Assembly: GCA_000934665.2 (NCBI GenBank)
Contig: KZ538249.1
Span: 62,001 to 92,831, forward strand
Origin: Catajapyx aquilonaris
Taxonomy: Eukaryota
DNA length: 30,831 nt
Reading direction: 5' to 3'
In this document: piece after piece, positions 3,859 to 30,831 of the stretch
Position numbering within the stretch: the stretch's first letter is position 1
Layout of the letters: the number at the start of each line of letters is the position of its first letter
The notes under the pieces: model-generated
The model's database searches: none
Told to the model about the DNA's origin: nothing
Seen by the model: only the letters and a program-made list of their open reading frames with translations
Made by a program: the position numbers and the translations under genes

Positions 3859-5429
3859 TGGCGGTTGTAATAATAACAACATTTGTACAGAAATATGGCG
3901 GTATGGGTTGAAAATCAATTGACGACCCACATATGCAGGGTGTGTTATTGTAGGAGGCAGAAGCAGGCAAATTGCTCGGTAATAATTCACAACTTGACAA
4001 CTGGCCCGTATTTTTGAAACATGCAAATTATTCACGAGGCTTAAAAATAGTCTGCTTTATTGGTACCTTCTGGCTTCGTACTGTACAATTGCGGCTGGAG
4101 TTCCATTATTCACTTTTGGCAGGATGTTTGCTCTAGGTTGCGTCAGGGTGGTCCTTTTTACACCTGCATTCGGTTGTTTCCACGCGAAGCTTCATGCAAC
4201 AGAAATGCATTGCGTGACAGGCATACGATTTCCAGTTGGCATGCCAGGGACTCTTAACGGGGATAAATGAATTTATGCCATAAGTGAAATGCATACTTAT
4301 GGGGCCTAGAATTAATTACTAAATAGTAATTGCATCACATGTGACACCCGTTGCTTTTTCCTGAACACAGCATATGTAGGCTGGGAAATCAAAATGGAAA
4401 TCTTGTCGGGTGATGCCAAATTGTGCAGGACAAGTGTGATTTTTTTTTTTTTAATTATGAAATTTTATGGGTGTAGGTATGTAAATGGCCATACAAATTG
4501 TTCGATACATATTTGCCGATATCTATTCCTCGCCCAAGTTTCGAAGCGTTTCGAAGCCTTTCCGTTGCGTGAAAGAATAATGCTGTCGCCGCCTTTCCGT
4601 AGTACATGATCCCACGAAGATATATGCGAAAGAGAAACACCGTCTGTAGGGCAATTATCGGGAGATAAGTTACACTATCGTCAGAGTTTATTAATTGAAG
4701 TCGCGTGTGTTTGCAGGCGATATTGATTTGGGCGAAGTTTTTGCCCCCGTTTGCGATCCAGGGCCCTCTTCAAAGATTGATGAATGTTTTCCACGGAATG
4801 GTGTGTACCCGGTGACAGGGTATGTGAAGGTATCCACACCAGTCCGGAATACTTTGTGTAGCGTGCCATGCCCCTTGTCACCGAGGTTCGGAATGCGTGG
4901 GATTCCCCAAAGATCCTGTTTAACAGGGTGTAGTAAAAAATGTATTATTCTGAGCGTAGAGGGGGCCGTAAAGGCAGAAAATGCGAAAACGATATTCCTC
5001 ACGCTTCCAATCACCCTCTATAACCATTTTCCAGCCCCAGCCTTTTCGAAAATCGATTAGGCATCACAAAAGGAATTTTAAACGACCCCTCCCCCCCCCC
5101 TACAACCACCCATCTTTGGCTATGAAAATGTGCCAAAAGTATGACCTTTGAGGTTAATGCCGTCGGAGCCTATCCCGCATTATTTATTTCATCTCGCCTC
5201 CAAGTCTGTCGTCTGCTCCTCCAGGGAGAGATACGTGGTGTCATTTTCAGGCGACATATTATTTTTTCTGGGGGGGACGAGGCCTGACAGCTCGGATATC
5301 ATTGCCAAGTGATATTGCACGTCCTGACGTGATTGGTTTATGAGCAGTCCACAGTGCGCACGTCAACAATGTCATCAATAAAATTAACAATTGTAGACAC
5401 ATGACACCAATATTACGTAGACATTTTCT

Positions 5430-5718
5430 AATTAAAAAGTATTATATAGGACGGCTCTGTCCGTCTGTGGACATGTATCAGGGCCTAAACTGCAAGAGAC
5501 AGCGACAAACGGTTTTCGGATTCAGCGGACCCTAAGTAAGTAGGTTTCATGGCCAACTTCCGGTTTTCCAAGTTCACTATATCCGCCAAAGTCAAGTCTG
5601 CATGCTTTAGAAATTATTTTCCCTAGGTTACTTGGCAACGAAAAATGAAAGTGACAATATTATGCCTTGAGAAAAAGTCGACTCGAATCACGCTCGCGTG
5701 ATTTTCCAATCTTACTGA
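5430..5718. mobile_element. Helitron/Helentron-derived (DINE-1/HINE-like) non-autonomous element
   Basis: AT-rich start followed by a CTGTCCGTCTGT core near 5456, with hairpin AATCACG-CTCG-CGTGATT at 5686-5703 near the other end. Layout resembles DINE-1/HINE; boundaries approximate. Confidence 0.4.
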
Positions 5719-5744
5719 TAATATAATTAATTTTGCTCAATATA

Positions 5745-5831
5745 TTGTCTAATAACTTCTCTAACTCGAATCTTCTGTAACTCGAAGTTTATTCCGGTTC
5801 CATGGAGATTCGACTTATAGAAGTTTTACTG
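5745..5831. mobile_element. Tigger/pogo-like mini-MITE
   Basis: Right end reads TA|CAGTAAAACTTCTATAAGTCGAATCT on the minus strand, a pogo/Tigger-type terminus. A degenerate inverse (AATAACTTCTCTAACTCGAATCT) lies at ~5751-5773, plus an internal TAACTCGAA repeat. Confidence 0.65.
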
Positions 5832-5842
5832 TAAAACAATTA

Positions 5843-6057
5843 AGGTGAAGTGGGGTAAGTGCATACACGGGGTAAGTGCATAAACTGGCCGCCATATTGG
5901 AATGAAAATGGCTGACATGCTCACCTCTTGTGGGGATGTGATGTGCAGCTACACAAAGGAGTGCCTGACGCGTTTTGGTGTCGTCAGCCATTTTCATTCC
6001 AATATGGCGGCCCCGTGTATGCACTTACCCCGTGTATGCACTTACCCCACTTCACCT
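5843..6057. mobile_element. MITE with ~75-bp TIRs and TA TSD
   Basis: 5843-5916 and 5983-6057 are near-perfect inverted repeats, each carrying a tandem 17-mer GGGGTAAGTGCATACAC. TA at 5841-5842 and 6058-6059. Confidence 0.9.
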
Positions 6058-6115
6058 TATTGTTTTATGATTGATTTCATATACAATATTGTTTTATGAT
6101 TTATTTCATATACCA
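6058..6115. repeat. 29-bp tandem duplication
   Basis: TATTGTTTTATGATTGATTTCATATACAA followed directly by TATTGTTTTATGATTTATTTCATATACCA (2 mismatches), abutting the MITE. Confidence 0.85.
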
Positions 6116-7547
6116 TTTATAATTTGTATCTAATTTTTATAATTAATGTAGCAGAAGTATTAGTCACATCGATTTGTTTCCTATTAGCTCCTAGTATGAA
6201 GATGTGTAAGAAATATCGATATATCGATGTAGATGCTCCCTAAAACTTTCTTACCTCGTTTTTTTTTAACATACTGGCATATACCTTTTTGGATGGCCTC
6301 GATTGCGTCCCGGCAACACAAAGAAGGTGCTGATTGAAAATGGCGGACGATGGACTCCCGAAGTAGGAAAAGGGAAACCCCATCGGGAGCACATATCATC
6401 TTTGGCAGGCACGAAGAATGCGGGGCCGAATGCATGAATTTTAGGTGGAGGTCGCTGCTCAATTCCAAGGAAGGGAGGACAGCAACCTTATTTACGTCGT
6501 ACCATGGGCGGACTGGGAAGCCCCCGTTGGTCCCTTTTGATGCTGGGGCTCCCTTCAATCTCCCAGGATTTCTTGCTTATAAGGGTTCGTGAAGGGCAAG
6601 AAATCTATCAAGAAGAAAGTTGGGCTCAGAGTAACGGCCGATATTATACAGGGTCCCATCGGACTTTCCTGCTGCCAAAATTTGAAATTGATTTTTTTTT
6701 AAACAATTTTGCTGAGATTGTCAACTGCTGAAAGTACAGGTGGAGTAATTCGATGCGTAGGAGTATTTTTTTTCCAAAAATTTAGCCCCATACGTTTAGT
6801 ATAGGAGAAGGATTGAGACAAGGAGGATGGTTTTTTTCGGCCCATTAGATGGGAATAAATTGGGGGGAAGAGAAACGTAGTGAACTAGTCGGCGGTTCAG
6901 GGAGAGACGCTTTTTGGCGTGTTGAACTGGGGCAGTTCTTTGCTCGACTATCGGATCAATAGTGATTGGTGGACTATCCTGCTTGCTGACCACTTCCCAC
7001 CAGCCTCCCCACATTTTTTTGGGGAGGACGGCTATGGGGTCGAAGATGCTGGAGTTCTCATTGAGATTTATCACCTCCAGGATTTCGGTTGCAGTCATAC
7101 GCAGGCGTCCCTCTTGTAGGGTCATGGCGGGACCCAACTTTGTAAACTCCTTCAAAGTCATTAGCTTTATGGGCTTTAAGTATGTCGGGCTTCCAGAAGA
7201 CGTTAGCGGAAGGAAGTGGTAGCGGGCGAGTCAATTTGGCACGGGTTGGGAGGGGCCATGAAAAAGAAGGAAAGGAAAGGGAAAAGAAAAAAAGGAACTT
7301 CTGCAATGGTTCCGGGGAGACTCTCAGAGATGGCAGCCACGCGTGACAATGGTACAGACGTAATTTTACAGGCGAGAAGCTTATTACAAAGGTTGAATTC
7401 GGGAACAATATGTAATGAAGTGGGCAAGTGTGCGACTTGCTTGGAGTCATTGGTTGATTGAGAAAGGTCGAAATCACTGCATCACGCTGATCAGTTTAAG
7501 TTGGAAATATTTTGGCACTAAGCTGCTTAATTTTAAGCAGCTGTTAA

Positions 7548-8039
7548 AGGGACACTCCACTCAAAATACAAGTTGGGTTCTAAAAATCGGGCAAAAAATC
7601 CTGATTCCGAGGGTATAAGCAGTTTTTCTTAGAGACGAACGGTAAGGCCAGTGTGAAAGCTGGAAGTGTGGCGTTCGAAAACCGCGCGCGGGGCAGGTGG
7701 GCGCAGGTGGCGACGCCACCAGAGTGGAACCGGGCGGAACTAGAGAAAGCATCCTGGCGCGGCCAGGGTCCCCTACATGGTTGCCTCCCCCACCCTAACT
7801 GTCTAACTGTCTAGGTGGGGGAGGCACTCATGTAGGTGACCCTGGGCGCGTCTCCTTCCCTACTTCTCCGGTTTGCCGCGAGATGCTGTTGTATCGCCCT
7901 TCTTAGCAGACGACGTGTGTATAGATGTATTATTTTCCGTGTTACCGTTGGGCGTAGGAAAAAACCGATTGCACATTCGGAATCAGGATTTTTTGCCCGA
8001 TTTTTGGGGGCCAACTTGTATTTTGAGTGGAGTGTCCCT
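7548..8039. mobile_element. Kolobok/T2-type MITE (492 bp, TTAA TSD)
   Basis: 63-bp TIRs AGGGACACTCCACTCAAAATACAAGTTGG... at 7548-7610 and 7977-8039; TTAA at 7544-7547 and 8040-8043. TTAA|AGG termini are typical of Kolobok/T2 MITEs. Confidence 0.9.
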
Positions 8040-8046
8040 TTAACAT

Positions 8047-8265
8047 TGTGACGACCCCGGGTCCGCCCCGGGGCCAACTCCGTGCGAGCTCTACCAAGAA
8101 AACACCTGGGTTCCATGGACACTGGTTTATTGGACCTTCCAGGTCGCCATCTTCCAGACTATCTCGACTCTGGATACGAACTCCACTCTCCCCTGGACAA
8201 AGCCTGGGAAGCAGTGCGCATGCCCCGCCCACATCACATGACCTACATGGGGGCGGGTCCTCACA
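8047..8265 (-). mobile_element. Solo-LTR-like repeat, copy 2 (219 bp, 4-bp TSD ACAT)
   Basis: TGTGA...TCACA termini with ACAT at 8043-8046 and 8266-8269. Minus strand has two GC boxes, a GCATGCGCA motif and AATAAA about 85 nt before the end. A 4-bp TSD is compatible with Ty3/Gypsy. Confidence 0.85.
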
Positions 8266-11251
8266 ACATTGCTGTGAATTGCAATTGGAGTCGAACACAA
8301 TTTTTTTCTCTTTAAAAATGATGGGTGAACACAACCTAATATTAGCAGCTTATACTTTTGGTAAACACTTGTGTAGCCTTTTCAGCATGATCGCTCCTTA
8401 TATGAAAACAAGTCACGCCTGCTTCGCAAATAAACGGCGGCAGGTAACACGCACCTACAAAGGCATTGTTATCCAACATCCCATTGTGCGAGCTGGTCGG
8501 CCTTAATAATTGGCGTATGATAATGACCACTAATAGACCACCTTTTCATCCTGGCCCGGTATGAGCACACTCGACAGATACTTGTGTCAGTCGATAAACG
8601 ATCCTTTCTGGTCGGGTTAAAATTTCAAAAAGGCGATGTGCTATAAATTGGGGGTATTTTTGACCTGAAATTTATCAGACATCGGTAACGATTGGTAGTC
8701 AGTACAGCATCACATACTTTTTTTATAGTTTTTTGTATTTTTCCGCAAAGCAAAAGGCCGTCTGCGACTTTTGAAACAAAAAGGGCCAAGTTTCCAGCGG
8801 CTCGCTTATGGAAATAAAAGCGCATTAGGCTTTCCCCGTGGCGCTAAAGTAATTTCATCCGGGAAACCCCTTGCGTGGCGAAAAAGAGCACTTCGTGCAA
8901 GTGGACACTGATCCCCTTTGATCCGAAGTGGGCATGTGAGTGGAAACTGAAAACGGATCCTGACCTCTGTCATGGGAGGCGGGTGCGTGCAGTGTCGTGA
9001 ACACCACCTGTGCCCGGTTTTTGAGCCAAAGGGGCAGGTACGGATCCCAACCACTGACAACAAAACACAGTCGGACATATCGATATTCTCCCAACCGAAT
9101 TGCTGACCCACTCCGGAAACGGTGAAGGCGTGTGGTTCGCGCGCTCAGGGACGGCACACCATCTGCCTTTCATGTTAGTGCATCGCGGTTGGGGGTTTCT
9201 CCGATGCCAGTCACGAAAACACCTGGAAAAGGCAGAAGGAGATACCTGGGCGGTTTTGGGCAACACGGAATGGCTTGAGAGACAGACTGTTCGGCACAGT
9301 TCGGGAATGATCGGAGCTGTTCGGCGATGCCCGACAGACGACAGTGCCATCTGTTGTTGAGCCATGTGGCAATGCTGAATCTGTCCTCTTTGTGAGGCAT
9401 GCCAGATTGTCAGATGCATCCGAAACACAGTGGAAGTTGTCCTGCGAACAAGTGATGAGGCTGAATTCTCTGCGGGACTTGCACTTGTACTACGTTGACA
9501 GTTTCGGACAAATGGAGCGTCGCCTGGCCTGACCACAGGATGCGTACTGTAGCCAAACCGCATCCGGTGCAACTGCCGCCTGCTGGTTTTTTTTGTTGCA
9601 GTCTAAAAATAATGTTTTGGTCTGCATCTCACCGGAGTGTCAGAACACAATACGTCATCCGTACTGGTGAAAACCTGCCGACATGTTGAATGCACACACA
9701 GGGTGTCCCAACGGACATTACATTGCAGTTAATATGACAGTTATGTGCAACGAATTGGGCAACAAAAATTAGGGGAAAATCTCCTTATATTTACAATGCG
9801 TCATCAGAGATTTTGCCTTTAATTTGAGTCGATACAACCAGCTTTACAGAGGGCGTTTTATTTTTATCCGCACACAAACAGATCACCCTATGTGTTATTC
9901 AGTGGAGCTTTATGACCACGGTATGTACTGTACCTATACAGTATTTTGACATGGTCGGAGCAGATTAATTCCAGGATTCGTGACTGTATAAGCTTGGTGG
10001 TGTCCTGAATTTTGCACATTATTTACTAGCCAGATTTAGCAGCCTTTTTACACTTCACACTCCACCTCCCCGACCACCAATTGGCACAAAGGTGTCATTT
10101 CAGGCGCTTGGTTTGTCACATGCCACTTCATATCTGCTCAAAATCGATTTAGGGAAGCTACAGTACGTCCATTATCAGATTCACTCTGGCGTCTCCGCAG
10201 GGCACGACACATGCAGATGGCCTTAATCGTCATGTGTTGCAAACATGCACTCGTGACATTGCTTTCAATCAAAGGGACAATGCACAAGGACAGTGTAAAA
10301 TTGCAAGTGCGACCTCGTTTACATGTAGGTGCTTACTTGGACAGAGCATCGTCCTGATGCATTGTTCTTGCACTTTTTATGTCGCGAGAATCTATTGTCA
10401 TATCTTGCGCTTTTGACAAACAGGTTGTAGCAAAATGTCAGTGAGCCACGAACTTCCTACCACTTTCCATTACAAACTTTGTAAAAGTGCGCCATTGAGT
10501 CCTCCATACCGGGGGGCTTGCATTTGGAGCGGCGACGAACAAAGGAAGCCGGATAAACCGAACGTCCTCTACACACCTGAGGGAGAGGGGGAGGGGGGGA
10601 AAAGTAGTCGCGAAAAATCCCCCCCAGGGGGGAGTTTCAATTTGTGCGAAATAATAACTCATAGGCCGGATCTGATGGCACGTCAGGCGCACGTGGGGAG
10701 CCCGAGCTGTATACAGAGGAGGCCAAAGGAAGGACCAGGGACATTGTGTTTTCGAAGTTCAAAAGAAACACCCGACTCGGGGCCCTCCCTAAACTCGATT
10801 GGCCACACCTTTCCACGGAGGAAACCCTTCTCAGGTTGCTTCCCAACACACAGGAGTCGTGAGGGTTTCTGCGAATACGAAACTCCATTGTCACTTAAAT
10901 CGGCTTTTCTCAAGGGGTCGATGCAAATCGGATTTGAGGGGGGGTGTACAGAAAGGGGTAGACTATGGCAGAGCCTACACTGCAGAGACGAGGCAGCAAA
11001 TTCGATATGAAAGTGCTTTTGTTCGCTTCTACATACATTTCTGCGCCACCTTTGAGACCCATGGGATTCTATTCCCATCCATTAGCGTTAGCGCACTTTA
11101 CACCCCTGACACTATACCTGCGGATCTGGCATTGTTAGGGAGGGTCTTCAAAAATGATCGTTTTCGCATGATCGTGACTAGATGAAGTCGATAGTCGAAC
11201 ACATGCAACTTACAATTAAAGATTCGTACCTCAGGACCCAATTACCGAATC

Positions 11252-11339
11252 AGTCAACAGTGTATGCCCACATTCCATTATCGGAGTGTAACAGTCAACA
11301 TTGTACAGGTCCGGTAATGGAACATGGGCATTGTTGACT
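11252..11339. other. 88-nt imperfect hairpin (pre-miRNA-sized, or MITE remnant)
   Basis: AGTCAACA-GTGT-ATGCCCACATTCCATTATCGGA pairs with TCCGGTAATGGAACATGGGCAT-TGTTGACT around a 24-nt loop. Confidence 0.55.
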
Positions 11340-12525
11340 TGGCTGAGAGTCACTGCTCTCATTGTGGTGTCAGTGCCTCATTGCTTTCTTTTAATCAGGT
11401 ACTTTGGAAATTTACTCTTAGCAGCTATCAGAAGTATTACTGTAGCTGTTAGCATCAGGCCGCTGTAAAAATCCCCGTAGTCGCTCAGGTCATTAACGAA
11501 TCCAGTGCAATAATTGGCACATAGTGAAAAATGGGTGGGAGGGTATGGGTTGGAAACGCGTCAAACAGGCAAGCTCTGTTGAAGACTAACCGCATGAGCT
11601 ACATTACACGCGGCACCAACTTGCAAATTGTGAATTATCCTGGCGCGCATTAGCAGGAGGGTCATCGCTTTTAATAAATTATGAATCGCCGATATTATTG
11701 GGCGCTAGGCAGCACAAGGGAGCTCTGGATATGAACGAGAGAGGCACCCCTATATACCATAATAGAGACAAGCTAGCTCATGGGATGAATTGCTGCAGTT
11801 TGCCGTTGCAAGCCTATAGGCCGCGATACCACCTGCAATTAAGACTCCCCCCTCCTTGATGAAGATGTAGCGTAAATTCTAATTATGCCGTAGCTTGTCG
11901 TAAACTTTGATGACGCATGAGATGTCGAATTGGAATTTGCTCGGAAGCCACCAAACTTTTGGACGATCAATCTCTCTTAATGTGCGGGGCGTAGATGTCT
12001 GCCGGAGGTGACTTCCAGGCCTGCCGAATGAGAGGGGGAGACTCGTATAAAGTTTGCAGGGCTAAATATAATGCATCGTGTATATACGGTGGTCCTAGCA
12101 ACGCTTGTAACTTTAAAAAAATAAGCCCCGTCCTAGCCTACATTTTTCAAACCCATGTAAAAAAATCGTACTTATTTTTAAATGAATTTTGGTGTCTTTT
12201 GTTTGTGAGTGTACAAATTACCCAAATCCCAGGCCAAGGTTATAGCAGCGGTATGTCAAAAAAGCGCAATATTTCAGTTCTACTGTTCCTTTGTATGCGA
12301 GTAATTGAAACAAACGTTTTCACGATAATAGCACCAGGAATTCTCTAACCATTGCTATCCGAAAACAATCTTATTATTCCCCCTGAAGTGACGTTCCCCC
12401 ATATTATTTTCTCTTCAGATGACCCCCTTCCTCGACTTTGATTGCGATCTTGAAGTCGCTTCTGGAGAGAGAAAACGGAATTTTATTCCTAATATTTCCC
12501 CCTCCAGCCTCTCGACCCATTTTTT

Positions 12526-12548
12526 TGTTGTTGTTGTTGTTGCTGCTG
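12526..12548. repeat. (TGT)n/(TGC)n microsatellite
   Basis: TGTTGTTGTTGTTGTTGCTGCTG read directly. Confidence 0.85.
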
Positions 12549-12884
12549 TGTCTATATGTATACCAAACCGAAGAGAATCTTTGTGTTTTGTCCGCTATCA
12601 TCGTCCCCGTTGCCAAGGAGACCCCCCCATCATATACGACTTACATAAAACTGGGGCGTGGATTATATCGGAATCACACGAACGACTGTTCAGTCCGAGG
12701 AAAGTAACAGTAAAAGGCATTCTTAATGTATTCTGACGGCTATTTAACGATCCATCTGAAAATATAACCTGGGCTATCACGCAGAAAGCACGAGACTCCT
12801 ATCCCCAACAGTTTCCTTTTCACTCTTTGTAATAGTTCAAAATGGAGACTGACAGTCTTGCTCTTTTGCAAGCGGCCAATCCAA

Positions 12885-13365
12885 TCCTTTTAATTGGCGC
12901 TTCTTGTGATCAATAAATATTATATACCTTCTTGCACAATGTATAGAAGATGAAAGGCGATGGTGTAAAGATCTATGCAAAAATATTCTTTTTTTTGAAA
13001 GGGGGCGAATTTCGCTTAGGGGGGACCCCCCTTTGCCGTCACCGACAGATTGACGACGTCGCTCCGCCTCTTCATTTAATTTGGATAATGGCGCCAATTA
13101 AGGAAATGGATTACGGGGAGACGTTTTAATTGGTTAATCGTTTATAATGACACCGTGTGACTTCGCCTTCAGAGGAGGGGGTAATTGGTTAACGACGACT
13201 TTGGGACTTGGGGCCAATCAGGTGTTTGCATCTTGGAATGGCGCCACAATTGGTTCAGGTACATACCCAGGTGTGCGACAGTTCGCGCTGTTGACACAAA
13301 TTGGTCAGCGAAATGGCAATGCCAAACGTTGAACATTCGTGTGGTGTTGGAGATAATCAATTAAA
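12885..13365. promoter_or_regulatory. Candidate enhancer: cluster of homeodomain TAATTG/CAATTA sites
   Basis: TAATTGG at ~12891, 13127 and 13182; CAATTA at ~13095 and ~13358; TAATTGGTTAA twice and AATGGCGCCA twice. Motif evidence only. Confidence 0.35.
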
Positions 13366-14354
13366 AATGAAAATATTAAATATGGCGCGCAGTATAATTT
13401 TATTAGCTGGGCAGCGTGTGTTTCAATAATGAATTTTCAGCATTGCATTACATGCATTATCATGCTATGGACTAGTCAAATCCTCAATTTGCATGCAATG
13501 CCCATTGCTATACGTGTAAAAAATAATATTGGCTGAAATTTTGCATGTCACCTTTTGGTGGGATGGTATTACTTTTAGCTTTTCAAACACCCAGATGTAT
13601 ATAGTGTATTGGAGGGATATCGACCGTGCATTTAATTTTTGAGACGAGATTAAACCAGGGGGGGATTTTCGCCCCTGATTCATCTGTTCCTGCCGCGAAC
13701 AGATCTCGTGATCTATTCAGGTTATGAACGAGAAAAATTCAATAACATGTTGATTGGAATTCTTCCAGCTGCCGCTAATTCCAAACTGATAGCCGCTTGC
13801 TGATCTTAATTTGGGATCCAGCAGCTGGTGGGGCCTCATGAAGCGCCATACCGATTTTTCAACTAACAAGGAAAAAAAAAAAAAACATCCATTACATGTA
13901 TATTACTGCGCTGCTGTTGTTATTAGCATAAGTTACATCTTGAGAGTTTCCTTCCCACATTTTTGCATAGGGGGGAGGGGGTACGCGAAAAAATATTTGC
14001 TTTTGGCTGCATGTGTGCAGTAGAATTAAGCATAGGGTGAATAATGAGGTTATCTTGTAAGTCCTGGACGGGAATAATTCGGGGTGCTCCAATGAATCCA
14101 CAATGCTGGGCCATTCCTCGTCACGACAAATGTCCCACAAGGTACACATAGAGTGGAAGCATATCCCCTGGTCCTTTCCACGGATAATTACGTGCCATCC
14201 CTTCCCCTCTTCGCAGTACGTGCCTCATTCGCTCCGTCAGGCGTGGGAGGTCTCAGGGTTGCTCAAATTTTGGTCACATAACTGGTCTTTGGTGGGATTC
14301 AGCGGAAACAGTGTCTATCAACCTAGAATATTGAAATTTTGGTGCTATTCTCAG

Positions 14355-14394
14355 TAATTAATGACAACTTTTTTTTGTTTCTTTTCAGGTAAGT
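14355..14394 (+). other. Candidate recursive splice site (ratchet point, zero-nucleotide exon), junction 14388|14389
   Basis: TAATTAATGACAACTTTTTTTTGTTTCTTTTCAG|GTAAGT: branch-point-like sequence, AG-free zone, ~19-nt polypyrimidine tract and CAG acceptor fused to a perfect GTAAGT donor. Confidence 0.65.
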
Positions 14395-15347
14395 ACTCGT
14401 CTGCTGCTATCGACGTTTGGAAGTGACAGTAGCCAGTAACCGTCGAAGAGCATGAATCGAGCACTAATTCCGCATCTGCAGTCAGAACCTACCAGCCCAA
14501 CTACAATGTACAAGGGAGGTGTATATAGGTTAGGGTGGTCCTCATCCTGGATCCTTCTATTTAGAAGGAACAGTAGTGCGGCTCGTGCTATTGGTAATGC
14601 AGAACTGCTCCACCTGTAATTAGGAGGGGGCGGAGGAGAGGCATGCCGTTTGAAAAATTCATTCCTCATTCGACATCCTTTTTTCGACCCCCTCCTCCTC
14701 TTACTTTGTTCGGGGGGTAGGGGGGGGGGGTCTTCGCCGTGCAGGTTGAATGGAGACCAGGGCCTCCCTGCTATGGAAACAAAAGTGGCTTCCATTTGAT
14801 GCAGGAGCATTAAAGCGAGTAGCGCACGAGACCCATTTGCAGCCAAGGGCCATTCACTTCGATTGGTAGCTTCAATTTGTCCGCCTTTGTATTTACACTG
14901 TGTTGCCCACGATTCCGAACCGGGTTGCCTCCATCCCTCTGCGTGGTACTAGTCACGTTCCTTTTCTTCTTGCTACAGTGTTTCGCAAGCGAAAGATATC
15001 AGAGTGCGATACAGCAACTTGGAGGCTCAAACTTTTCGAGTGGACTCAGCATACAGGGGTTCCAAACAGAAGTTGTGTCATCTCTGGGGGGGACCTTTTC
15101 GAAAAAAAAGAGATCATGTCAAAGCTTCAAATGACATTAATTGGAGCGTCCTTTTTGAATACCTGGGTATGCAATTACCGCTTAAAGACTATGTGTAATT
15201 GAGCAATAATGTGTGCAATTTATGGAGTGATTATGGACTCTTTAATGCTGCAATTTGTTGCCCAGTGGGAATATTTTGAAGCAGGGAGTGGCGTTAATGA
15301 GAAGCGAATTGCTACGATGCGTGGTATGCTTCATATTGTTCTCTTGG

Positions 15348-15364
15348 GTGTGTGTGTGTGTGTG
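15348..15364. repeat. (GT)n microsatellite
   Basis: GTGTGTGTGTGTGTGTG read directly. Confidence 0.85.
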
Positions 15365-18300
15365 GGAGGTCATCAGCGATATTTTATTGCCTTTCATGGA
15401 AAATGATTTAGAGGCTCGTATTTTTCGAGATATTTGAAACGTGTTGTTGCGACATTACTTGATTCCCCCGTCGGGGGGTTTATTGCAAGGTGTGGAATGC
15501 GCTCTCGAAACTATATGGCATGATCAGATCCGACTGGAAATGATTGTCTCTCACTCGGCTAGAATGATCGAGTTTCACTTTGAAATGATTGGATTTCGGT
15601 ATAAAATATCGGATTTGACGGGGGGAATTGACTCCGCAGAACCATTTTCCAAGTTGTCAGCTCAGCGACTGTGTATAAACTATTTTTTTTGTGAAATTCT
15701 GAACTTAACGCTCATTTTGAAGCGATTTGATCCGACTGTTGTAGATGATGCATGTGACACATGCCTAAGCAAAGATTGGGCCGATTCTACATCCGGTCTT
15801 TGAATGAGTTGCTGGCATAGCTGAAGCCAATAACTCTGGTGGTGGGAGAGAAAAGTTGAGCTAGGCAGGATTTCCAAAAAAAAGAGATGAGGTTGACAGT
15901 GCATAGCTTTGAATGTGAATCCAGGGGAGCATATTCTCCGGTCCCAATGATTGGCGTTTGGACCATCAGTCGGAATTCAGAGTGGGACAGTAATTTCCGG
16001 CCCTTTCTCGTCCCAGGGTGGAAATGAGAAACAATATCATTTTTCCTCCCCTGACTCCACTGCGAAGGAGCGCTGGCGTTGATGGGTTACAAAAACTTTA
16101 TTAATGGAGAAAGAGGGAGGAAGAACCTGAGGATTGGGCCTCCCCGAGTGCCGAAGAGCTGATATAAACCGGGGCTTTACAGATTTTTACGGGCCTCAGG
16201 GGGCCGTAAAGCGGGGACCCCACGCGTCTTCTCGACCTGCATTACGCATGCAGAAGAAATGCCACTTGCTTTTAATTTCGCAACAAATTGTCATCCAGGC
16301 GACGGGGCTTCTGTTCTGAACGCTGCACATTTTGAGGTCAACGCCATGGCTGCCATCTTGGATCGCTTCTTGGATCAGCCGGTAGAGGGAAGCGGGTTGG
16401 TGAAATGAGCCGCTAGAGGTGCCACTGATGAGCCGAAAATTAGGGATGTTAAACAGTTTTGCGGCGGATTCCCACTATATATGTGATCATAGCCCATAAA
16501 ATCGCCGTAAACTTGAACGCATTGTCTGAACAAACAGAACTCGCGGGCTCAGAACTCGCGGGGCCTTTAATTATTCCGCTCGCGCATTTCCGGTGGGTTC
16601 ATGGAAATAGGAAGCCCATTGCTGCCTTGCTTGGCTGTCGGGCCTCAATGATGCATGAGCTAGTCATTGGCCCTCCGGAACTTTTTATTATAACCCCCAA
16701 AGTATGTCTAAGTTGAATCTCATAAATAACGAAATCACACTAAACAAGCACGCCCCGGGCTTGTGTACAAAATCCGGGCGTACGCTTCATCCCATAACAG
16801 CTCCGAGGTTTTTTCCTATATGGAAGGTAGACCCCCCATATAAAAGCAACGCAGCTCCAGCTTGGAATTGCGCATTGTCTTGTAAGATATATTCGTGTTT
16901 TTTTTTGCATTTATTTTAACTGGATCATATATGCTGATTTACGTCTGCTGATGTGCATGTAAATTTCTTGGATTTTTTGAGCCGTGAGAGAATATTTTTG
17001 AATTATGAGGAAGCCTATTACTTGGGGATCAATTCAATGAGTAACTGAACATTGTAGAAATAGTTGTGAGAATATGTTTCTTGTTATTGATATCTTAAAA
17101 ATTTCAGAGAGCTGGAGTAGATCACACTTTTACAGAGTTGGGTCTCACTTTCAAAGTGAGGAGCAACTTCAAGTGGGTAAAAGTGACATTTGACTATTTC
17201 AGAATGAAATTTCGTTGAATTTGGAGCTGGCAGTATAGCCCACTTTATAGGGGAAGTGCCGCACACCAGAAAGGTGAATGAAACGAGATCGATTTGGAGT
17301 TAAAGCAACTTTTCCCAGACACAAAAGTGAGAGGGATGGCGCCCATGAGACTGTCCCGAGGTAGAAGAAGAAGGAGTGGTTTTAAAAAGATAGTTTAGGT
17401 GTTGGGGCATCAGGTGGGAACGTGGGGAAGGGGAGGGGGGAGGGAAGGAAAGGCACAATCCCCTCATGGCCCTCGGTTGGCTTCTTGGGGGCATGAGCGG
17501 AGTTTTTGGTGTTGGCGGCCTGCACCCCGGGGTTTATTATGGCGGTTTCGCCTTGTTTGAGGAAAAGAATTCTCCTTATCAAATATGGTTGGTACAGTTA
17601 GGCGGGAAGAAGCAGGGGGTGCGGATCAATAGCTGGATGAGAGAAGGAGGATTTGGTTATAAAGTCATGTAGACATTGTGCAAGTTGGTTCCCCACTAAG
17701 GGTTAGGCGGTGTGCATGGCTGTCTATGAAGTTTTCTTGAAGAGGTCAGTCACACTGTTTCTGTAGCTTATACCTGCAAATACCTTGGGTACATCTTAGC
17801 ACTGACATAATAAATTATAGTTATGGTATGTAAGGCCATGTGCTTTTTTTTTATTTGGATGTGGTCAGGTGGAATTGTTGAATGAGTGTGACCTCATTTT
17901 AGTACCGGGGGGCGTTTAATTCGGCTAATAATGGTGATGAAATTTATGGATGTTTGGCATCCGCCGTGTCCGACCATGATTTCATCAATGTTTTATGGCA
18001 GCAAAATACAATCGGAACCAAATGACGTACCGATCAATGAGTGACGGAACGAAACCAATTAGAGTAATCTCATTTAAGCTAGTCAATTACGTAAAATCCT
18101 ATTAGAACACCACCACCAGGAGGATTTTTTTTTCGGACGATATTATTTTTCATGTTTTTCATTATAGGATATTATATATGAAAGGCGAAACCGCATCGTC
18201 CTGGCACAATCATTGTTGCGGTGAGTGTTTTGACGTCACCTGAGTGCATGTTTGAGATCAAACAAGGGGTTGTGTTGTTTTTTTTTTGCTCGATGCCAGA

Positions 18301-19502
18301 GCAATTATCGCGGTAACGACTGGCCAACAAAGTGCGCAAGTGACTAGTGGTCATCATGGGAAATTGAACCGCAGAACTGTCCGCTTATATCTGCCCCATT
18401 ACGTTGCACGCGAACGGAGGACACGATGTAACAAGTGCGGTTATGGTTGTTTTATGCTAAAGCGTGGCGTGGCTGCCTAAGAGATACCCTTCGCAGATTT
18501 GATGACATTAATGCGGATGGTTCCATGAAGCTGATTTTTTTTTGTGTGGGTGGAGGTTTTTGAGAGAGAGCTTTTAATGTTTGTGCTATTGTGATAATAT
18601 TTTGGGTAAGCAAATATTAGTACACCACACTGCATCAGTGGATTATCGATATGTGACACGTACATTGCATATCAAAAATTAACCATCTGCGCAGGGGATA
18701 CTGCTCATGTTTGCATTATCTTGATATATTCTTGTAGACAGTTGGCATTGTTAATTCATGCATGAGTATACAGTATGCAACACAAAACTTGGATGTATTT
18801 TTTAAACGCGACCTTTTGAACATACGCACGACCTTTTCAAGTTATATTACTGTGATTGCATGTAGTGTGCAGTCACAAAGGACAATAAAAAATGTAATTA
18901 ATGTCTCACTTGCCTTGCATATGCCTTGAACTTTTTAAGCGCTGCACAAAGCCCACATCCTTTTTTGCGCGTTGAATAATTTGTTTTTGAGCACATTTCT
19001 GATTCAAATTACATTTCTTTTTTGGGGCAGTAGGAAACGGCATGCTCGACGTATAAAGCGACCAAATCTCCGTCATTATAATCCTGGCCAACCGCAAAGT
19101 ATATGACCCAGCCAGCCAGCAAAGTCCGGTGCGTTGAACTTGGGACATCGTTTCAGGCCATTGTGTCCAATAATCGGTACTTTAGCAGTCGGGCCAATCT
19201 GGGCAGTTTGCATTAGCATGTTATTGTCCCAGCAAAGGTAATACCCCCAGAGCATGATCGGACTAGGGGGCGTTTGAGAGGAGCTCTAAATCCTGGCCCA
19301 AATGAGCTAGATGCAGCTGAAGCATTATCTGTCCCAAGGAAGTCCTGGTAAATAAGGGGCGTCCTGCTTTTATGGGACAGACACGATTAATTCCTGGCTT
19401 TGCCGTGATGACGGGGGTGGAGTTCCGCCCATTTTAGGACCACGCTTTATGATCCTTTGAGAAACAAATAATCAGCTATGGGCAAACCTAATACATAGAA
19501 AC

Positions 19503-19722
19503 TGTGACTACCCCGGGTCCGCCCAGGGGCCAACCCCATGCTAGCTCTACCAAGAAAACACCTGGGTTCCATGGACACTGGTTTATTGGGCCTATCCAGG
19601 TCACAGCCTTAGTACAGACTCTCTCGACTGTGGTTACCGACTCCCCTCTCCCCTGGCCAGAGCCAGGGAAGCAGTGCGCATGCCCCGCCAACATCATGAC
19701 CAGAAGGGGGCGGGCTCTCATA
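19503..19722 (-). mobile_element. Solo-LTR-like repeat, copy 3 (220 bp)
   Basis: Colinear with copy 2; ends TGTGA...TCATA. Flanks AAAC and ATAC (4-bp TSD with one mismatch). No adjacent PBS or PPT. Confidence 0.8.
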
Positions 19723-20579
19723 ATACACACCAGTGTTCGCCTACATGACTAACCACGCCTCCACTCAGTTTTTCCCTCCTATCATGAGGTCGAATCGCTC
19801 TGCACGCATCTGCGCATGCTCAGAAAACACGGCTGGTGTGACGTCAGATCGTTCTTTCGCTTACAGGACAGCGATATTCGGCTCGTACCGTATTTTCAAT
19901 GTTTACAGTGATATTATAGAGCTTAGAGGTGCCATACCAGGACCCAAGTTATTTGAGGTGCTGGTATCTTGAACCCTTGCTGGTAATAAGAGAGCCACGT
20001 CATAATTACAGGTTTTTTGTTCCACACAGCAGAGGGCATATTGCGGGTTTTCTCGTAAATGGATCCTCCAATTAGAGGGCGCAAAGAGTTGACGTATAGC
20101 GCAATCTGAGAGTGGAAGGCAGGTGCTGATAAGGTTGTGCATCCATGTCGGGCGCCTCTTTTGTTCGCTGGCGACGAGGATGGAAGGAGGCTGGTAAGGG
20201 GGTGGGGGTGTGGAGGAGAAGCCCTCCCTTCTCTCCACCTCCCCCTTCGTATCTGCCAGGAGCCTGACAAATTTGTTTCTCCAGCAAGACTGCACGTTTC
20301 CTCTTGCCTTCTTCCCCTCCTCCACGTAGAACTGTGCCACCCCCAGAAGACTTTTTGCCTGAGATCTCCTCCCTAGCTCCATTGACAGCTCCCCAGGCTT
20401 GATGCCCGGGAGAAGAAGAATGGAGCTTTCCGGGGAAAATCTGGACCGGATTCCAAGGAGTATGCAGTGCGCAATTAGTGAGGGAACAGGCTCTGGAAAA
20501 AGAAGTGGAAGTGAATTTGCAAGATTTCTGCACATTGGGGGGGATATGCTTGAAGGGCACCCATCGTGTCACACTATTA

Positions 20580-20752
20580 TAATATGGGTTTAATTAATTA
20601 ATTAATTAATATAATGCTGAATTTCATTTTTAATTTTAAAAATGAAATTCAGCATTATATTTATTTATTTATTTATGTGTATTTTTTTAAATGCACAAAT
20701 TGACAATTCCTTAGACTGCAGTAGATCCACAGTATCCGAAAGGGTAATATGG

Positions 20753-20785
<33 letters not shown>

Positions 20786-20936
20786 ATATAATGCGAATTT
20801 CATTTTTATTTTTAAAAATGAAATTCAGCATTATATTTACGTATTTACTTATTTAACCCATATTACCCTTTCGGATGCTGTGGATCTACTGCAGTCTAAG
20901 GAATTGTCCATTTGTGCATTAAAAAAATACATATAA
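20580..20936. repeat. Compound foldback: 264-bp palindrome plus an upstream duplicate of its central hairpin
   Basis: 20673-20936 is a near-perfect palindrome with (AAAT)n inside the arms. Its central hairpin (20785-20837), with the preceding TAATATGGGTT plus an AT microsatellite, recurs at 20580-20661, where 26-bp perfect arms surround TT. Confidence 0.9.
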
Positions 20937-23569
20937 TAAGCCCCTTTCAGTAAGCCTTTTTTAAGTTCCTTTGATACCAAATTATTTTTGTACGAAATGC
21001 GGAATGTATTCATGGGCAATGGGGCTTTCTGGAAAATGTGACCCTGCAACTTTGTCACACAGTCGACTGTGACATAGATGAAAGTATCTCTGGGCTCTTT
21101 TTCCGCTCTTCTCTGTACGTCATGCATATGTAGCGGTTTTTTGGGAAGGGGTTGGTAGGGGGTGGGGGTCCACATTAATATGAAAGGTGCTTTGCACTTT
21201 CCATTCTCCCACGCATTTTCGCTCTCCTGAAAAAAAAAAAAAAATCTACTGGGAGCAGTCATTCACAGCCAGACTAAATTACGGCTCCCTTTAAAATTTT
21301 GCGCGTGAGCAAACAAAAATTAGGTGGAAGAGAACAAAATGTATGAGCGCATTAGCATGCTTTTTCCCTGGTTTGTGCTTCAGATGAACAATGTCCTGTC
21401 GGTTGAATGTATTGCATTATGTTGAGTAGTTACTATTTCATTCGGCCTGAAGTAGCCTGGAACTGCACTCTGGCAGTTTGCAATGTTGGGTGTATTTTAG
21501 GATGGTGGGAGCCCCTAGAATAATAGAGATGTCTGCTTGTATTAGCCTCAGATGTATATGTGTAGTTATAACAATGTGTAGGTGGAAATTCAGAATTACT
21601 GCGGGGAATATTATTTTTTTGATACCGAATTGGCCGCTTCAATATGGCCACTGTAATAAAGTTCCACAGGTGCAGGTACATCGCCATAAATATAATGCAA
21701 TTATTACTTCGCGGCAGCCGCGCAATAAACCCGCAAAATTAGGTGTAAATTATTCTGGCTGTCGTATAATGTTATACGAGGCACTAATCATAACCGCGGT
21801 TGTTTTTTTGTTATTTTTTTGTTTATAAATAACTAAAAAAAATCAGGGGGTGGGGGGTGGGGATGGGGTGGGTTGAGCGAATGGTTCCGTGTTTTTGGCG
21901 ACAGATGCGACATCCCCCATCCACCGCGCGTGTCATGAATTTTATGCGCCAGAAGGGCACATCAGCGGTGATAAATAAGCGGAGGGGAAATTTTAAATTA
22001 TCAGCGAAATCGTAAATAGGTGTAAGCGACATGAACATCCGCTGTACGTATCATTTGCCTCGTTATCACCAGGGGACACTTTATTTTGTTCGGTCGGGGA
22101 CAACTACAATGCGTGTTGCGACTCCACTCCTGAACTGGAATTTTGACAGGAACGATTTTTTTTGTGGGGGGGGGGGGGTGCTATAAATCACGAGGATAGT
22201 CCCAAATAGTAGTGTAAGAAATGTAGAATAAAATTTTTGTCTATGAAAAATGTGGTATAGCATAGGGTCAAAAAAATTGGAAGGTCGACTTTTTTGTAGG
22301 GCATGACCCAGCAGGTTATTATTACACCTTTCGAATACTTGACGTCATAAAAACGTCTATTACTGCCCTTGACCAGCTGCAGTTTGCTTTGAGCCTATCC
22401 TATATATATTTTTTTTTCGGGACATGAGGAACTACAGGAGGGCAAAAGTGCAATAAAATAAGGGAAGGTGGTCTGGGTTACGAGCCGATTGCATGCCTTG
22501 AAGCCATGCTTAAAATCGGTCCCGAGTTGGGAAAAGTGGTCTGAGCACGCGTCAGGGGGGCCTTGCAGGAAAAGGACCATCAAAGCACATTCATCATGAG
22601 CTTCCTAGCACTTAGGACTTCTTTTTTTTTCCTCCGGATTAATTACCCAGTCAGCGCATGTTTCCTCTGCTATCCCATCGCGGTTCCTGCATAACGAATT
22701 GTGACGTGCGTCAAATAAATTTTTATTTGATGACTTCAGAGGCTCTGGGTTCCAATCTCATTAGCCTCCAAAACCATCCAGATCAGGCAATTCAAGTGCA
22801 GCGGGGCTATAATAGGTGTAACTCGCATTCTGTTCCAGTTGTTAGTATGGAGCGGACTATCGATTACAATCCTAAATACATTTCTTTCATGTGCAAAAGG
22901 GTATAGCAATATTTTTTTTTGTTGTTTTGAGGTTGCGGTGTAAGCCGCAATTTCACTGATGCATGCAATTTTTCAAATGCATAGATTGTATGCAGGGGAG
23001 GGAAAAAAATATGAAATGCTTTTGTTGATGGGCATTTTCGGTCGTTGATTAAAAACATATGTACAGTATTACATAATGTAGGATTCAGGCAGCACTATTC
23101 CCATTTTGTTGGGGGGTGCTGCTCTTTAAAACATTGGCTTGCAGTGCATCGCCACCGAGCAACCGAAGCGAATAACTACATTCTGACTTGCTTTGAGCCG
23201 CACGTCGTCACCATACATATTCAACATCATGTCAGTCCCCATCTCGGTTTAATTAAACACGCCTTTTGCGTTACATTTTGGAAAAAGAACTGACGAAATG
23301 TACCTGTGCACCACTTGAGACATCAGCGCTTTGATTAGTTGAATGAACCACACTGTATACGTATCCTGGACGCGTCTGAACAAGGTAAAACCCTGGGTCT
23401 GGCCGAAAATGCAGCGACCGGTTATAAAACGAAGCGAGCAGGAACGGACCATAAATGTCTGTACGTAATGAAGCCAAGGCAAAGCGCGCACACTTCCGCT
23501 TTATGGGGGCTTTTCATCAGAGGGCCTGGCTTCCCCCCGTCTCTTAGCTTGTAATTCCCCCCCCCCCCC

Positions 23570-23586
23570 NNNNNNNNNNNNNNNNN
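23570..23586. other. Assembly gap (17 N) between poly-C and poly-G runs
   Basis: C run 23557-23569, Ns, G run 23587-23599. Confidence 0.95.
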
Positions 23587-23797
23587 GGGGGGGGGGGGGC
23601 TAGAGTTGGAGGATCTGCTGCTTGGAAGGGGTTTTTTCGGGGGTGAGTTGAGACCGATGGGGATACTAACTCCCGGTGGGGTTACGTGCTGCACGAAGCC
23701 TACTGCTTAATAAGTGATGGACCTGGATGCTGTCAGTTTGTGACAAGTGTCGGTCAGACCCATGATCTTATAGAATACTAAGGTCTGGTCACTCCCA

Positions 23798-24066
23798 CTT
23801 ATCGCCTGCCGGGGCATTTTGGATGAGGTGCTCACTTGAGAGCGCCATGAGACATTTCATTTCTCTATTATGTGGCGACCTCAACGGGACCGCGCTGAAC
23901 TTTATAGGTACAAAAGGGAAGTGCTATATTGGAGGACCCAGCATGGTCGCCATCCCTTTTGTGCCTATAAAGTTCAGCGGGGAGGTCGCCACATAATAGA
24001 GAAATGAAATGTCTCATGGCGCTCTCAAGTGAGCACCTCGTGCAAAACGTCCCGGCAGGCGATAAG
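23798..24066. mobile_element. Palindromic (foldback) MITE-like element, 269 bp
   Basis: Arms 23798-23919 and 23953-24066 are inverted repeats with a few substitutions and one 8-nt indel, around a 33-bp spacer. TSD ambiguous (TA possible); superfamily not assignable. Confidence 0.8.
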
Positions 24067-25379
24067 ATAAGACTGTAGGGGTAGTGTCCGTGGGCTGGTC
24101 AGACCCCCAACAACGACTCGTATGAATCTAATTGTGCTTGGTAAGTTCTGAAGCCAATTAAAATCTTAGTTTTTAGCGTTCCCTGGCATTTGCTATTAAT
24201 TCCTCTTACAAATTGACTGCCTTTTCTTCTAGCATTAACGCGGGCTGTGCATTAGGCCTTCAGAAGTCTCCCAGCAACATGAAATATGCCTTGGAAATTA
24301 TGTTGAAGCCCTCGTTTACAAGCGAGGAGGTATTTGAAAGCCGAAGCAATTAGTCGTCGCCCAAGCTCCTTGGACCAGAATCTTGGAGAGTTAGCAACTA
24401 CAGGCCTATATAAGCTCGGCATCTGAGAGGAAGAGAGGTTGTGCTGGTTGTAAGTTGTAACATGCAGTTAGCTGTATTTTTAAAAAAACGAGCATGCACT
24501 TTAAAACCTCTAGTTCTTTTGAAGCTATATTGCACCGGTACAGAATCAATAAGCAGATTGTAATCGAAAGCATACCTGGCTCCGGAAACGGTGACTCTGT
24601 AATTAATTACGAGTGATGAAGGGAGCTTGTTAGGGGAGAGTAATGGGAGCTGCTCCAACCAATCCCCCACCCTTCCACCCCCCTCTTTTTTTTACCTTTT
24701 TATCGGTGTGTTACCACTTAAACGCAACCTCTGTAATGTGCGGTATCCCTAGAGGGTTACATCCATTTCAACACAGGCTCCCGAGTTTGGTAAAAAAGTG
24801 AGATGGGGGGAAATATATAATAAAAAAAGTGGAGTGGCCTATGGGATATTTGGGGGGGGGGGTGGTTCTCTACAACGCTAGGCGATCAATAAGCAAACTG
24901 TGGTCTCGTTTCCTGAGAGGTTGTGGACATAAAAGGAAACAATACATGACAAACGAGCCGGAGGAAAATGTATGGGGGTTTATAGGATTTCATGGCGGAG
25001 AGTCCGATCTTCGAGACTAATCTTACGGAAAAGGATTTTTTTATATAGGGGGGGGAGGGGGAGGGAAAGAGAGTAATATTGACTGACGATAAACAAGTCG
25101 GATGGACGGTTGTTTTTACCCAAATGGATTTTTGGGTAACCCAATGCTCATAGAATGTAGCTAAAATTAACTTGCTTAGAATAACCGGACTTGGTATTTC
25201 CTAGTATGTAACGTAGTGTGACGTACCAGTTTGGAAATCAATCATATCTAATCGGATGGATGTCTGTAGCGTTTACGACCTGCGGAGGGAGCGTGAAATG
25301 CGTTTCGTCGAACCGGGTCTCGCGGAATTTTTCTCTTCTACCAAGGCCTGCCTGCCATGCATTCCACATAGGGCCTTCT

Positions 25380-25381
<2 letters not shown>

Positions 25382-25410
<29 letters not shown>
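25382..25410. repeat. Poly-T tract (29 nt)
   Basis: Read directly; no retrocopy body or TSD recognised next to it. Confidence 0.9.

Positions 25411-30148: not shown

Positions 30149-30153
<5 letters not shown>

Positions 30154-30205
<52 letters not shown>
30154..30205. repeat. (CT)n/(GA)n microsatellite
   Basis: About 26 uninterrupted CT units. Confidence 0.95.
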
Positions 30206-30209
<4 letters not shown>

Positions 30210-30831
30210 GGAAGACGGCTGGTGCTACTTACTCCTCCAAAACCCTCTGAATTTTTGGTGAAATATTAAGCATGAAAAGGTCACTTTGAAGGTGACGCCC
30301 ATGAATAAGGTAAGGCCATGGATTATATGAATAATCTAAAAATATATGGCCTACCTGAAATTCAGAACGAACAGCCGTCATTTTGGTTGAAATTGAATTA
30401 GAAAATGCATAATATATTCCTTGATCCGTACTGTGCGATGGATACGTCAGATGCCTAGAGAAATTACGGTTACATCGAGGAATGGTTGGAAAAAACTGCT
30501 CCTTAAAGGATAATGAAATCTTCAAAATTCCTTCGTTTATCTCGAAGTCACTCCAAGATGACTGTAGTTATTGCATCCATGTAATATACAGGGGGCAGGG
30601 AGCATATACTACATAAGAGGCGCAAACTTCTGTCGGTGCCTTTGATGTTCGCGTCTCTCTGTTTTGGGCGTTGCCAAGGCTGGCGGCCATTTTGAAGTGT
30701 GTGGAACGCCAACGAGGTATAAATAGGGTACAGGCAGGCCGTCATGGTCCACGGGGGTCCGCCATCTTTGATGGTTTTGGCTGCCATGGCAATACACGGC
30801 ATAACTTCCTTTTTTAATTGAATTTTGCATG

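Follow-up and report, generated by a model that had tools for sequence, protein, structure and literature searches.

A consensus acceptor-donor composite resembling a recursive splice site in 31 kb of DNA without detectable coding sequence

The composite motif

The window (the whole stretch of DNA that was analysed, 30,831 nucleotides) carries on its + strand a putative 3' splice site that runs directly into a consensus 5' splice site: positions 14355-14394 read TAATTAATGACAAC-TTTTTTTTGTTTCTTTTC-AG/GTAAGT, with the junction at 14388/14389 (slashes within motifs mark the junction throughout). The sequence-only reading had described a strong 3' splice site fused to a consensus GTAAGT donor, and this was correct to the base when the sequence was re-read. 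The features of the site and of its surroundings are listed in Table 1. Citations of PMC8605326, PMC8797253, PMC8892266, PMC6110456, PMC6110457, PMC7175933, PMC5786239 and 10.1101/2024.12.11.627982 refer to parts of these papers.

Pyrimidines occupy 15 of the 16 nt before the AG, and the donor matches the consensus at every position, with an A at +7. The sequence AGGTAAGT is present in one copy on the + strand and in none on the - strand of the whole window. When both strands were searched for AG/GTRAG preceded by at least 10 pyrimidines in 16 nt, the motif at 14389 was the sole instance in the window. RNA structure does not bury the region of the site (z = +1.29; folding was as good or better in 184 of 200 shuffles), and none of the variants listed from the DNA-run contigs of one sample falls within 14355-14394.

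Table 1. Positions of the composite motif and of other features in the window
Feature	Position	Strand	Remarks
Branch-point-like stretch TAATTAATGACAAC	14355-14368	+	Within the AG-free zone; read from sequence
AG-free zone	14355-14386	+	32 nt; closest upstream AG at 14353-14354
Candidate branch A in TTAAT	14361	+	-28; fits yUnAy; sequence reading only
Candidate branch A in TGAC	14364	+	-25; sequence reading only
Polypyrimidine tract TTTTTTTTGTTTCTTTTC	14369-14386	+	17/18 pyrimidines; TT at -5/-6, C at -3
TT at -5/-6	14383-14384	+	
AG of putative 3' splice site	14387-14388	+	Junction 14388/14389
GTAAGTA, consensus 5' splice site directly 3' of the AG	14389-14395	+	CAG/GTAAGT against MAG/GTRAGT: 9/9 matches
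Hypothetical cryptic RS-exon	14389-14528	+	Weak donor-like sites downstream; all three frames closed within 17 codons
Donor-like CCA/GTAACC	14446	+	+57; 5/9 donor matches, read by eye
Donor-like GAG/GTGTAT	14519	+	+130; 6/9 matches
Donor-like TAG/GTTAGG	14529	+	+140; 6/9 matches
Stable GC-rich hairpin AGGAGGGGG...CCCCCTCCT	14622-14699	+	235-310 nt 3' of the site; single-copy by depth
Relaxed match to the composite, CAG/GTGTGT	10571-10592	-	Weaker acceptor-donor composite TCCCCCTCTCCCTCAG/GTGTGT; poorer donor
Relaxed match to the composite	21221-21242	-	No GT
High-copy interspersed repeats	5067-6400, 7068-8401, 11737-12403, 19074-20407, 23743-24399		Depth about 150 to more than 20,000, against a baseline of about 30
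Hairpin pairs	5834-5888/6012-6066, 7542-7645/7942-8045, 23798-23882/23982-24066, 27594-27705/27775-27886, 20683-20776/20834-20927		
Dispersed family of about 190 nt	8047-8236, 19503-19696 (also 2012-2102)		2-3 copies in the window; 85-93% identity
Long stop-free frames	29420-30265, 19906-20568, 8973-9602, 28731-29297	-	
Long stop-free frame	10417-11007	+	
Long stop-free frame	14388-14948	-	187 aa; abuts the site
Microsatellites	30154-30205, 25382-25410, 20590-20615, 20755-20788		(CT)26, T29, (TTAA)6 and (TAAA)8, respectively
Runs of N	23570-23586, 29765		17 bases and a single N; DNA contig 20879-23795 crosses the first gap
Within-sample variants	after 14719; 13969, 13976		GG insertion (contigs of two runs); A>G (one contig)

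The regenerated donor and the donors downstream

If an exon were spliced to 14389, the donor so regenerated (9/9 matches) would by far surpass every donor-like site of the following 400 nt, none of which exceeds 6/9. The best of these lie at +130, +140 and +227, with 6/9 matches each; the first two, GAG/GTGTAT and TAG/GTTAGG, had already been pointed out in the sequence-only reading and are present at the positions given there. A donor-like site of at least 6/9 was not found near 50 nt downstream, the typical length of a fly cryptic RS-exon, where the 5/9 match at +57 is the closest candidate. Since weak downstream donors are also expected by chance, they do not discriminate for or against a cryptic RS-exon.

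Further 3', the GC-rich hairpin folds with -38.6 kcal/mol (z = -4.87), a value that none of 200 shuffles attained. Its sole Rfam matches are miRNA-like and lie far below threshold.

Copy number, repeats and variants

Contigs from three DNA runs, which belong to one sample of one study, were placed on positions 4400-24399. Three of them (12213-14730, 12213-14747 and 12213-17095) each span the site, at a depth of 22-32 that equals the single-copy baseline. Self-BLAST of the window found no second copy of 13500-15500 and returned only low-complexity matches of 14-29 nt. Because the site is bridged at baseline depth and has no self-BLAST copy, it is single-copy down to 90% identity, and at this level the earlier statement that it lies outside any repeat holds. 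An old, diverged repeat of less than 90% identity could still underlie the site.

Elsewhere in the covered part, high-copy interspersed repeats stand out by their depth. Several of them are long inverted repeats, with arms of 55-112 nt that are 83-96% complementary; these elements look like MITEs, and no coding frame recognised by Pfam was found within the high-copy repeats. The copies of the dispersed family of about 190 nt are connected to each other in the DNA-run contigs (joint from 8153 to 19646). Assembly gaps, microsatellites and within-sample variants are given in Table 1. Another run under this species label reaches 8 of the 30 bins; these all fall in high-copy repeats, and the site is left uncovered. 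Judged by its depth relative to the DNA runs, this run looks like low-coverage DNA, and it says nothing on expression.

Searches for genes

The window had been said to hold no coding exon, and as far as Pfam sees this is so. The curated cut-off was reached by none of 297 stop-free frames, neither by the 45 of at least 100 aa nor by the 252 of 50-99 aa (50-99-aa frames containing N excluded), in a scan that shorter or lineage-specific exons would escape. The four matches below threshold were all of low complexity. Nothing was detected in the window by Rfam at the gathering score or by the ARAGORN tRNA scan. Such a stretch of 31 kb without detected coding sequence is compatible with an intron, and equally with intergenic DNA.

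Stop-free frames of at least 187 aa number six, against about 0.6 expected from Markov-2 and Markov-5 simulations. The long frames either overlap with each other, across reading frames and strands, or hold microsatellites, are without a Pfam match, and look compositional rather than coding. One of them, the 187-aa frame on the - strand, was considered as a coding exon abutting the site and was rejected: it belongs to no Pfam family, and none of 317 candidate homologues reached an E-value of 0.01 or less in a search that compared proteins of 102-328 aa.

The - strand was also inspected for relics of RNA-derived elements. As for a U1 relic, no Rfam match was obtained at the gathering score in the window, nor at E-values up to 10 in 13800-15000. 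A retroposon tail was rejected as well: no credible target-site duplication was found (the lone 10-nt flank match lies 4.5 kb off in AT-rich DNA and is expected at about 0.2 by chance), and the A-run at 13865-13885 pairs with the T-run at 14369-14380 only as low-complexity sequence.

Frequency expected by chance

The 8-mer core alone occurs at its expectation, with one copy observed against 0.24-0.89 per strand per window in Markov simulations. For the full composite, 100 Mb were simulated with an order-3 model trained without the site, and an AG-free 16-nt tract was required. With at least 13 of 16 pyrimidines, the simulation yielded 15 composites on the + strand and 18 on the - strand per 100 Mb (0.33 per Mb for both strands, or about 0.010 per window); with at least 15 of 16, it yielded 1 on the + strand and 4 on the - strand (0.05 per Mb for both strands, or about 0.0015 per window).

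A separate estimate was taken from real counts, by multiplying the acceptor-like sites by the frequency of GTAAGT. Acceptor-like sites with at least 13 of 16 pyrimidines number 31 on the + strand and 36 on the - strand of the window (67), those with at least 15 of 16 number 3 and 10 (13), and GTAAGT occurs 8 times on the + strand and 7 times on the - strand (15 per 61,662 positions). This gave about 0.016 composites per window under the loose threshold and about 0.003 under the strict one. By the two estimates, a motif of the strength observed is expected by chance at about 0.0015-0.003 per window, and a looser one at about 0.01-0.016. Extrapolation to a genome of at least 250 Mb gives roughly 12 chance motifs that are equally strong and about 80 that are looser.

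The relaxed pattern Y12-NYAG/GTRAGT, with at most two mismatches, has three matches in the window against 0.14 expected, and none of 100 shuffles reached three; the two matches other than the site lie on the - strand (Table 1). As real DNA contains more homopyrimidine runs, shuffles underestimate the chance rate. The motif is rare for one window yet expected many times per genome or in a large scan.

Strand asymmetry

On the + strand, G exceeds C by 8.7% and T exceeds A by 3.2% (8.0% and 3.5% in the single-copy parts). Of 16 bins of 2 kb, 15 have a positive GC skew and 13 a positive TA skew (T>A). AATAAA occurs 22 times on the + strand and 33 times on the - strand, a difference that is not independent of the T>A skew. 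An excess of T over A on the coding strand is general, whereas vertebrates have G>C there and invertebrates C>G (PMC5786239, citing Touchon 2004). The GC skew of fly introns is reported as 1-1.5%, and the 8.7% of the window is far larger. With the vertebrate pattern, both skews would be in line with a + sense strand; with that of invertebrates the two indicate opposite strands, and the skew is therefore uninformative on the sense strand. The asymmetry may stem from transcription, replication or repeat content.

Comparison with known recursive splice sites

The intronic ratchet points of Drosophila, for which the names zero-nucleotide exon and cryptic RS-exon are also in use, are described in Ubx, kuz, osp, fz, luna and other genes (10.1101/006163; PMC8605326; PMC6110457). 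A preprint by Duff et al. (10.1101/006163) reports 197 of them in 130 fly introns of 11-133 kb. Mapped branch points lie mostly at -36 to -21, TT is found at -5/-6 in 196 of the 197, and the sites are conserved clearly above control AG/GT sites; 91 of 160 earlier computational predictions were verified, and recursive splicing occurs in only 6% of the fly introns that are longer than the smallest recursive one (10.1101/006163). The part of PMC8605326 cited here counts more than 500 recursive sites in flies, and describes the ratchet points as acting via a cryptic RS-exon that is short, about 50 nt, and whose donor loses to the stronger regenerated donor.

Judged by its sequence, the present candidate has every feature published at that level for fly ratchet points. 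As in these, acceptor and donor are juxtaposed at AG/GT, the T-rich tract is prominent and carries TT at -5/-6, and the candidate branch adenosines at -25 and -28 fall between -36 and -21. The likeness extends to a regenerated consensus donor that beats the nearby downstream donor-like sites, to stop codons just 3' of 14389, and to a long stretch without detected coding exons. What defines a fly site, by contrast, is a set of junction reads, a saw-tooth in read density and lariats, together with conservation well above control AG/GT sites, while the present one is a candidate from sequence; and, unlike fly cryptic RS-exons, it has no donor-like site of 6/9 or better near 50 nt from 14389.

Recursive sites and RS-exons of vertebrates share the AG/GT(AAGT) composite (PMC8605326; PMC6110456; PMC8797253). 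The mechanism proposed for them, RS-exon definition and then competition of the regenerated donor with that of the RS-exon (PMC8605326), is the same as would be proposed for the present site. In mammals, the part of PMC8605326 cited here gives nine fully suppressed intronic recursive sites and perhaps more than 6,400 expressed RS-exons. These counts imply that composites are more often exon starts there, and in this the mammalian composites, which mostly open expressed exons, differ from the present window. Recursive sites are rare in mouse (PMC8797253). Beyond these groups, a recursive site has been predicted in a 230-kb locust intron (PMC8892266), and there is a study of recursive splicing in lungfish (10.1101/2024.12.11.627982).

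Control AG/GT sites serve as background in the fly studies (10.1101/006163; PMC6110457). The site also resembles cryptic splice-site composites and pseudoexon acceptors of long introns (the latter reviewed for DMD, PMC7175933), in that it is a splice look-alike deep in non-coding DNA; it differs from typical background AG/GT in being far closer to both consensus sequences. An exact 28-nt scan of metagenome contigs for the motif gave no match. The CpG observed/expected ratio of the window is 0.80, unlike that of vertebrate DNA, and this argues against a vertebrate host.

Discussion

The motif is confirmed as an observation, and the results neither support nor reject its reading as a recursive splice site in use. 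The likeliest reading, by a narrow margin, is that the motif arose by coincidence and sees no regular use by the spliceosome. In this view, a GTAAGT hexamer would have come by chance to adjoin a T-rich tract with CAG at its end in single-copy non-coding DNA, and either no + strand pre-mRNA would cross the site, or the site would be ignored or used as occasional splicing noise. Consistent with this, the 8-mer core stands at its chance expectation and full motifs are expected at 0.05-0.33 per Mb; relaxed matches exceed the shuffles (3 against 0.14), and strong acceptor-like tracts are common in the window (31 on the + strand, 36 on the - strand). No sign of a host gene was found (none of 297 frames in Pfam; Rfam and tRNA scans empty), and there is no strong downstream donor (best 6/9, at +130 and +140). 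Proven recursive sites are rare elsewhere, in 6% of long fly introns (10.1101/006163) and with nine fully suppressed sites in mammals (PMC8605326). The motif is, however, well above the minimum (15/16 pyrimidines, TT at -5/-6, an AG-free zone of 32 nt with plausible branch points at -25 and -28, and a 9/9 donor), and by chance its like would be expected only about 0.0015-0.003 times per window. Such motifs in long fly introns mostly proved genuine (91 of 160 verified, 10.1101/006163), 31 kb without detectable coding sequence have the look of a long intron, and RNA structure does not occlude the site (z = +1.29). The excess of T over A on the + strand, present in 13 of 16 bins, has the direction usual for a sense strand (PMC5786239).

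A genuine recursive splice site in a long + strand intron, acting as a ratchet point or as the start of a cryptic RS-exon, we regard as possible but less likely than a chance motif. An upstream exon would be joined to 14389, so that a strong donor, (exon)AG/GTAAGT, would be rebuilt; this donor would out-compete the weak donor of the cryptic exon, and the rest of the intron would be removed in a second step that leaves no trace in the mRNA. Recursive use gains from the presence of all the sequence-level features published for flies (10.1101/006163), from a 9/9 regenerated donor against 6/9 or less downstream, as the donor-competition model requires (PMC8605326), and from frames that close just downstream, as in cryptic RS-exons (PMC8605326). 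It also fits a single-copy site in 31 kb without detectable coding sequence, at a chance of about 0.0015-0.003 per window and with T>A on the + strand. The tens of chance motifs of such kind that a genome should contain speak against it, as does the excess of G over C by 8.7% on the + strand, which opposes the C>G of the intron coding strand in invertebrates (PMC5786239). At about 50 nt, moreover, nothing donor-like is found except the 5/9 match at +57, and recursive sites are rare in mouse (PMC8797253) and in mammals generally (PMC8605326). A narrower proposal appears rather unlikely, namely that the host is neither Drosophila nor a vertebrate and constitutively uses the site as a zero-length ratchet point of a long + strand intron. 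The balance depends on the host. Since the site is near both consensus sequences, its recognition would be expected if a + strand pre-mRNA crosses it, and recursive use would then be the better account. In a lineage with fly-like use of ratchet points, and within a long sense intron, a motif of such quality would be much likelier real than chance; in a mammal-like lineage, or in an intergenic or antisense window, chance would win.

The acceptor may instead be real and mark 14389 as the first base of an exon that extends to a downstream donor, be this exon ordinary or cryptic (untranslated, alternative, poison or lncRNA), with GTAAGT reused never or at times. This is improbable, although the acceptor is strong, donor-like sites follow at +130, +140 and +227, and the expressed RS-exons of vertebrates offer a parallel for occasional reuse of a donor. 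The three frames close within 17 codons, and the + strand frames around the site are without a Pfam match. With downstream donors of 6/9, weaker than the regenerated one, the competition model predicts that such an exon would be skipped (PMC8605326).

Very improbable is an origin of the motif as the by-product of a - strand element, namely the 3' end of an old retroposed copy with its A-tail, or the stub of a U1 snRNA pseudogene. The - strand does read ACTTACCTG followed by the A-rich run GAAAAGAAACAAAAAAAA, the 187-aa stop-free frame of that strand (14388-14948) ends exactly at the site, and frames of at least 187 aa are in excess (six against about 0.6). U1 has a 5' end complementary to the consensus donor, and the likeness to U1 goes no further than the 9-10 nt common to U1 and every consensus donor; down to 90% identity the region is single-copy, and the 187-aa frame has neither a Pfam family nor a homologue among the proteins compared. 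An origin from the - strand concerns origin only, and is compatible with later use as a splice site.

At present, the locus offers a precisely defined target, with its junction at 14388/14389 and branch candidates at 14361 and 14364; it is a single instance of the motif and a candidate from sequence. If used, the site would add one more recursive site, possibly in an unmapped lineage, and no new mechanism, the known range of recursive splicing already reaching beyond flies and mammals through the locust prediction and the lungfish study. If used, and together with a genome-wide count, the site could show whether organisms with long introns share the fly-type ratchet signature in general. Were the site a constitutive ratchet point in an organism outside Drosophila and the vertebrates, recursive splicing of the fly type, marked by TT at -5/-6 within a T-rich tract, would be more widespread among long-intron eukaryotes.
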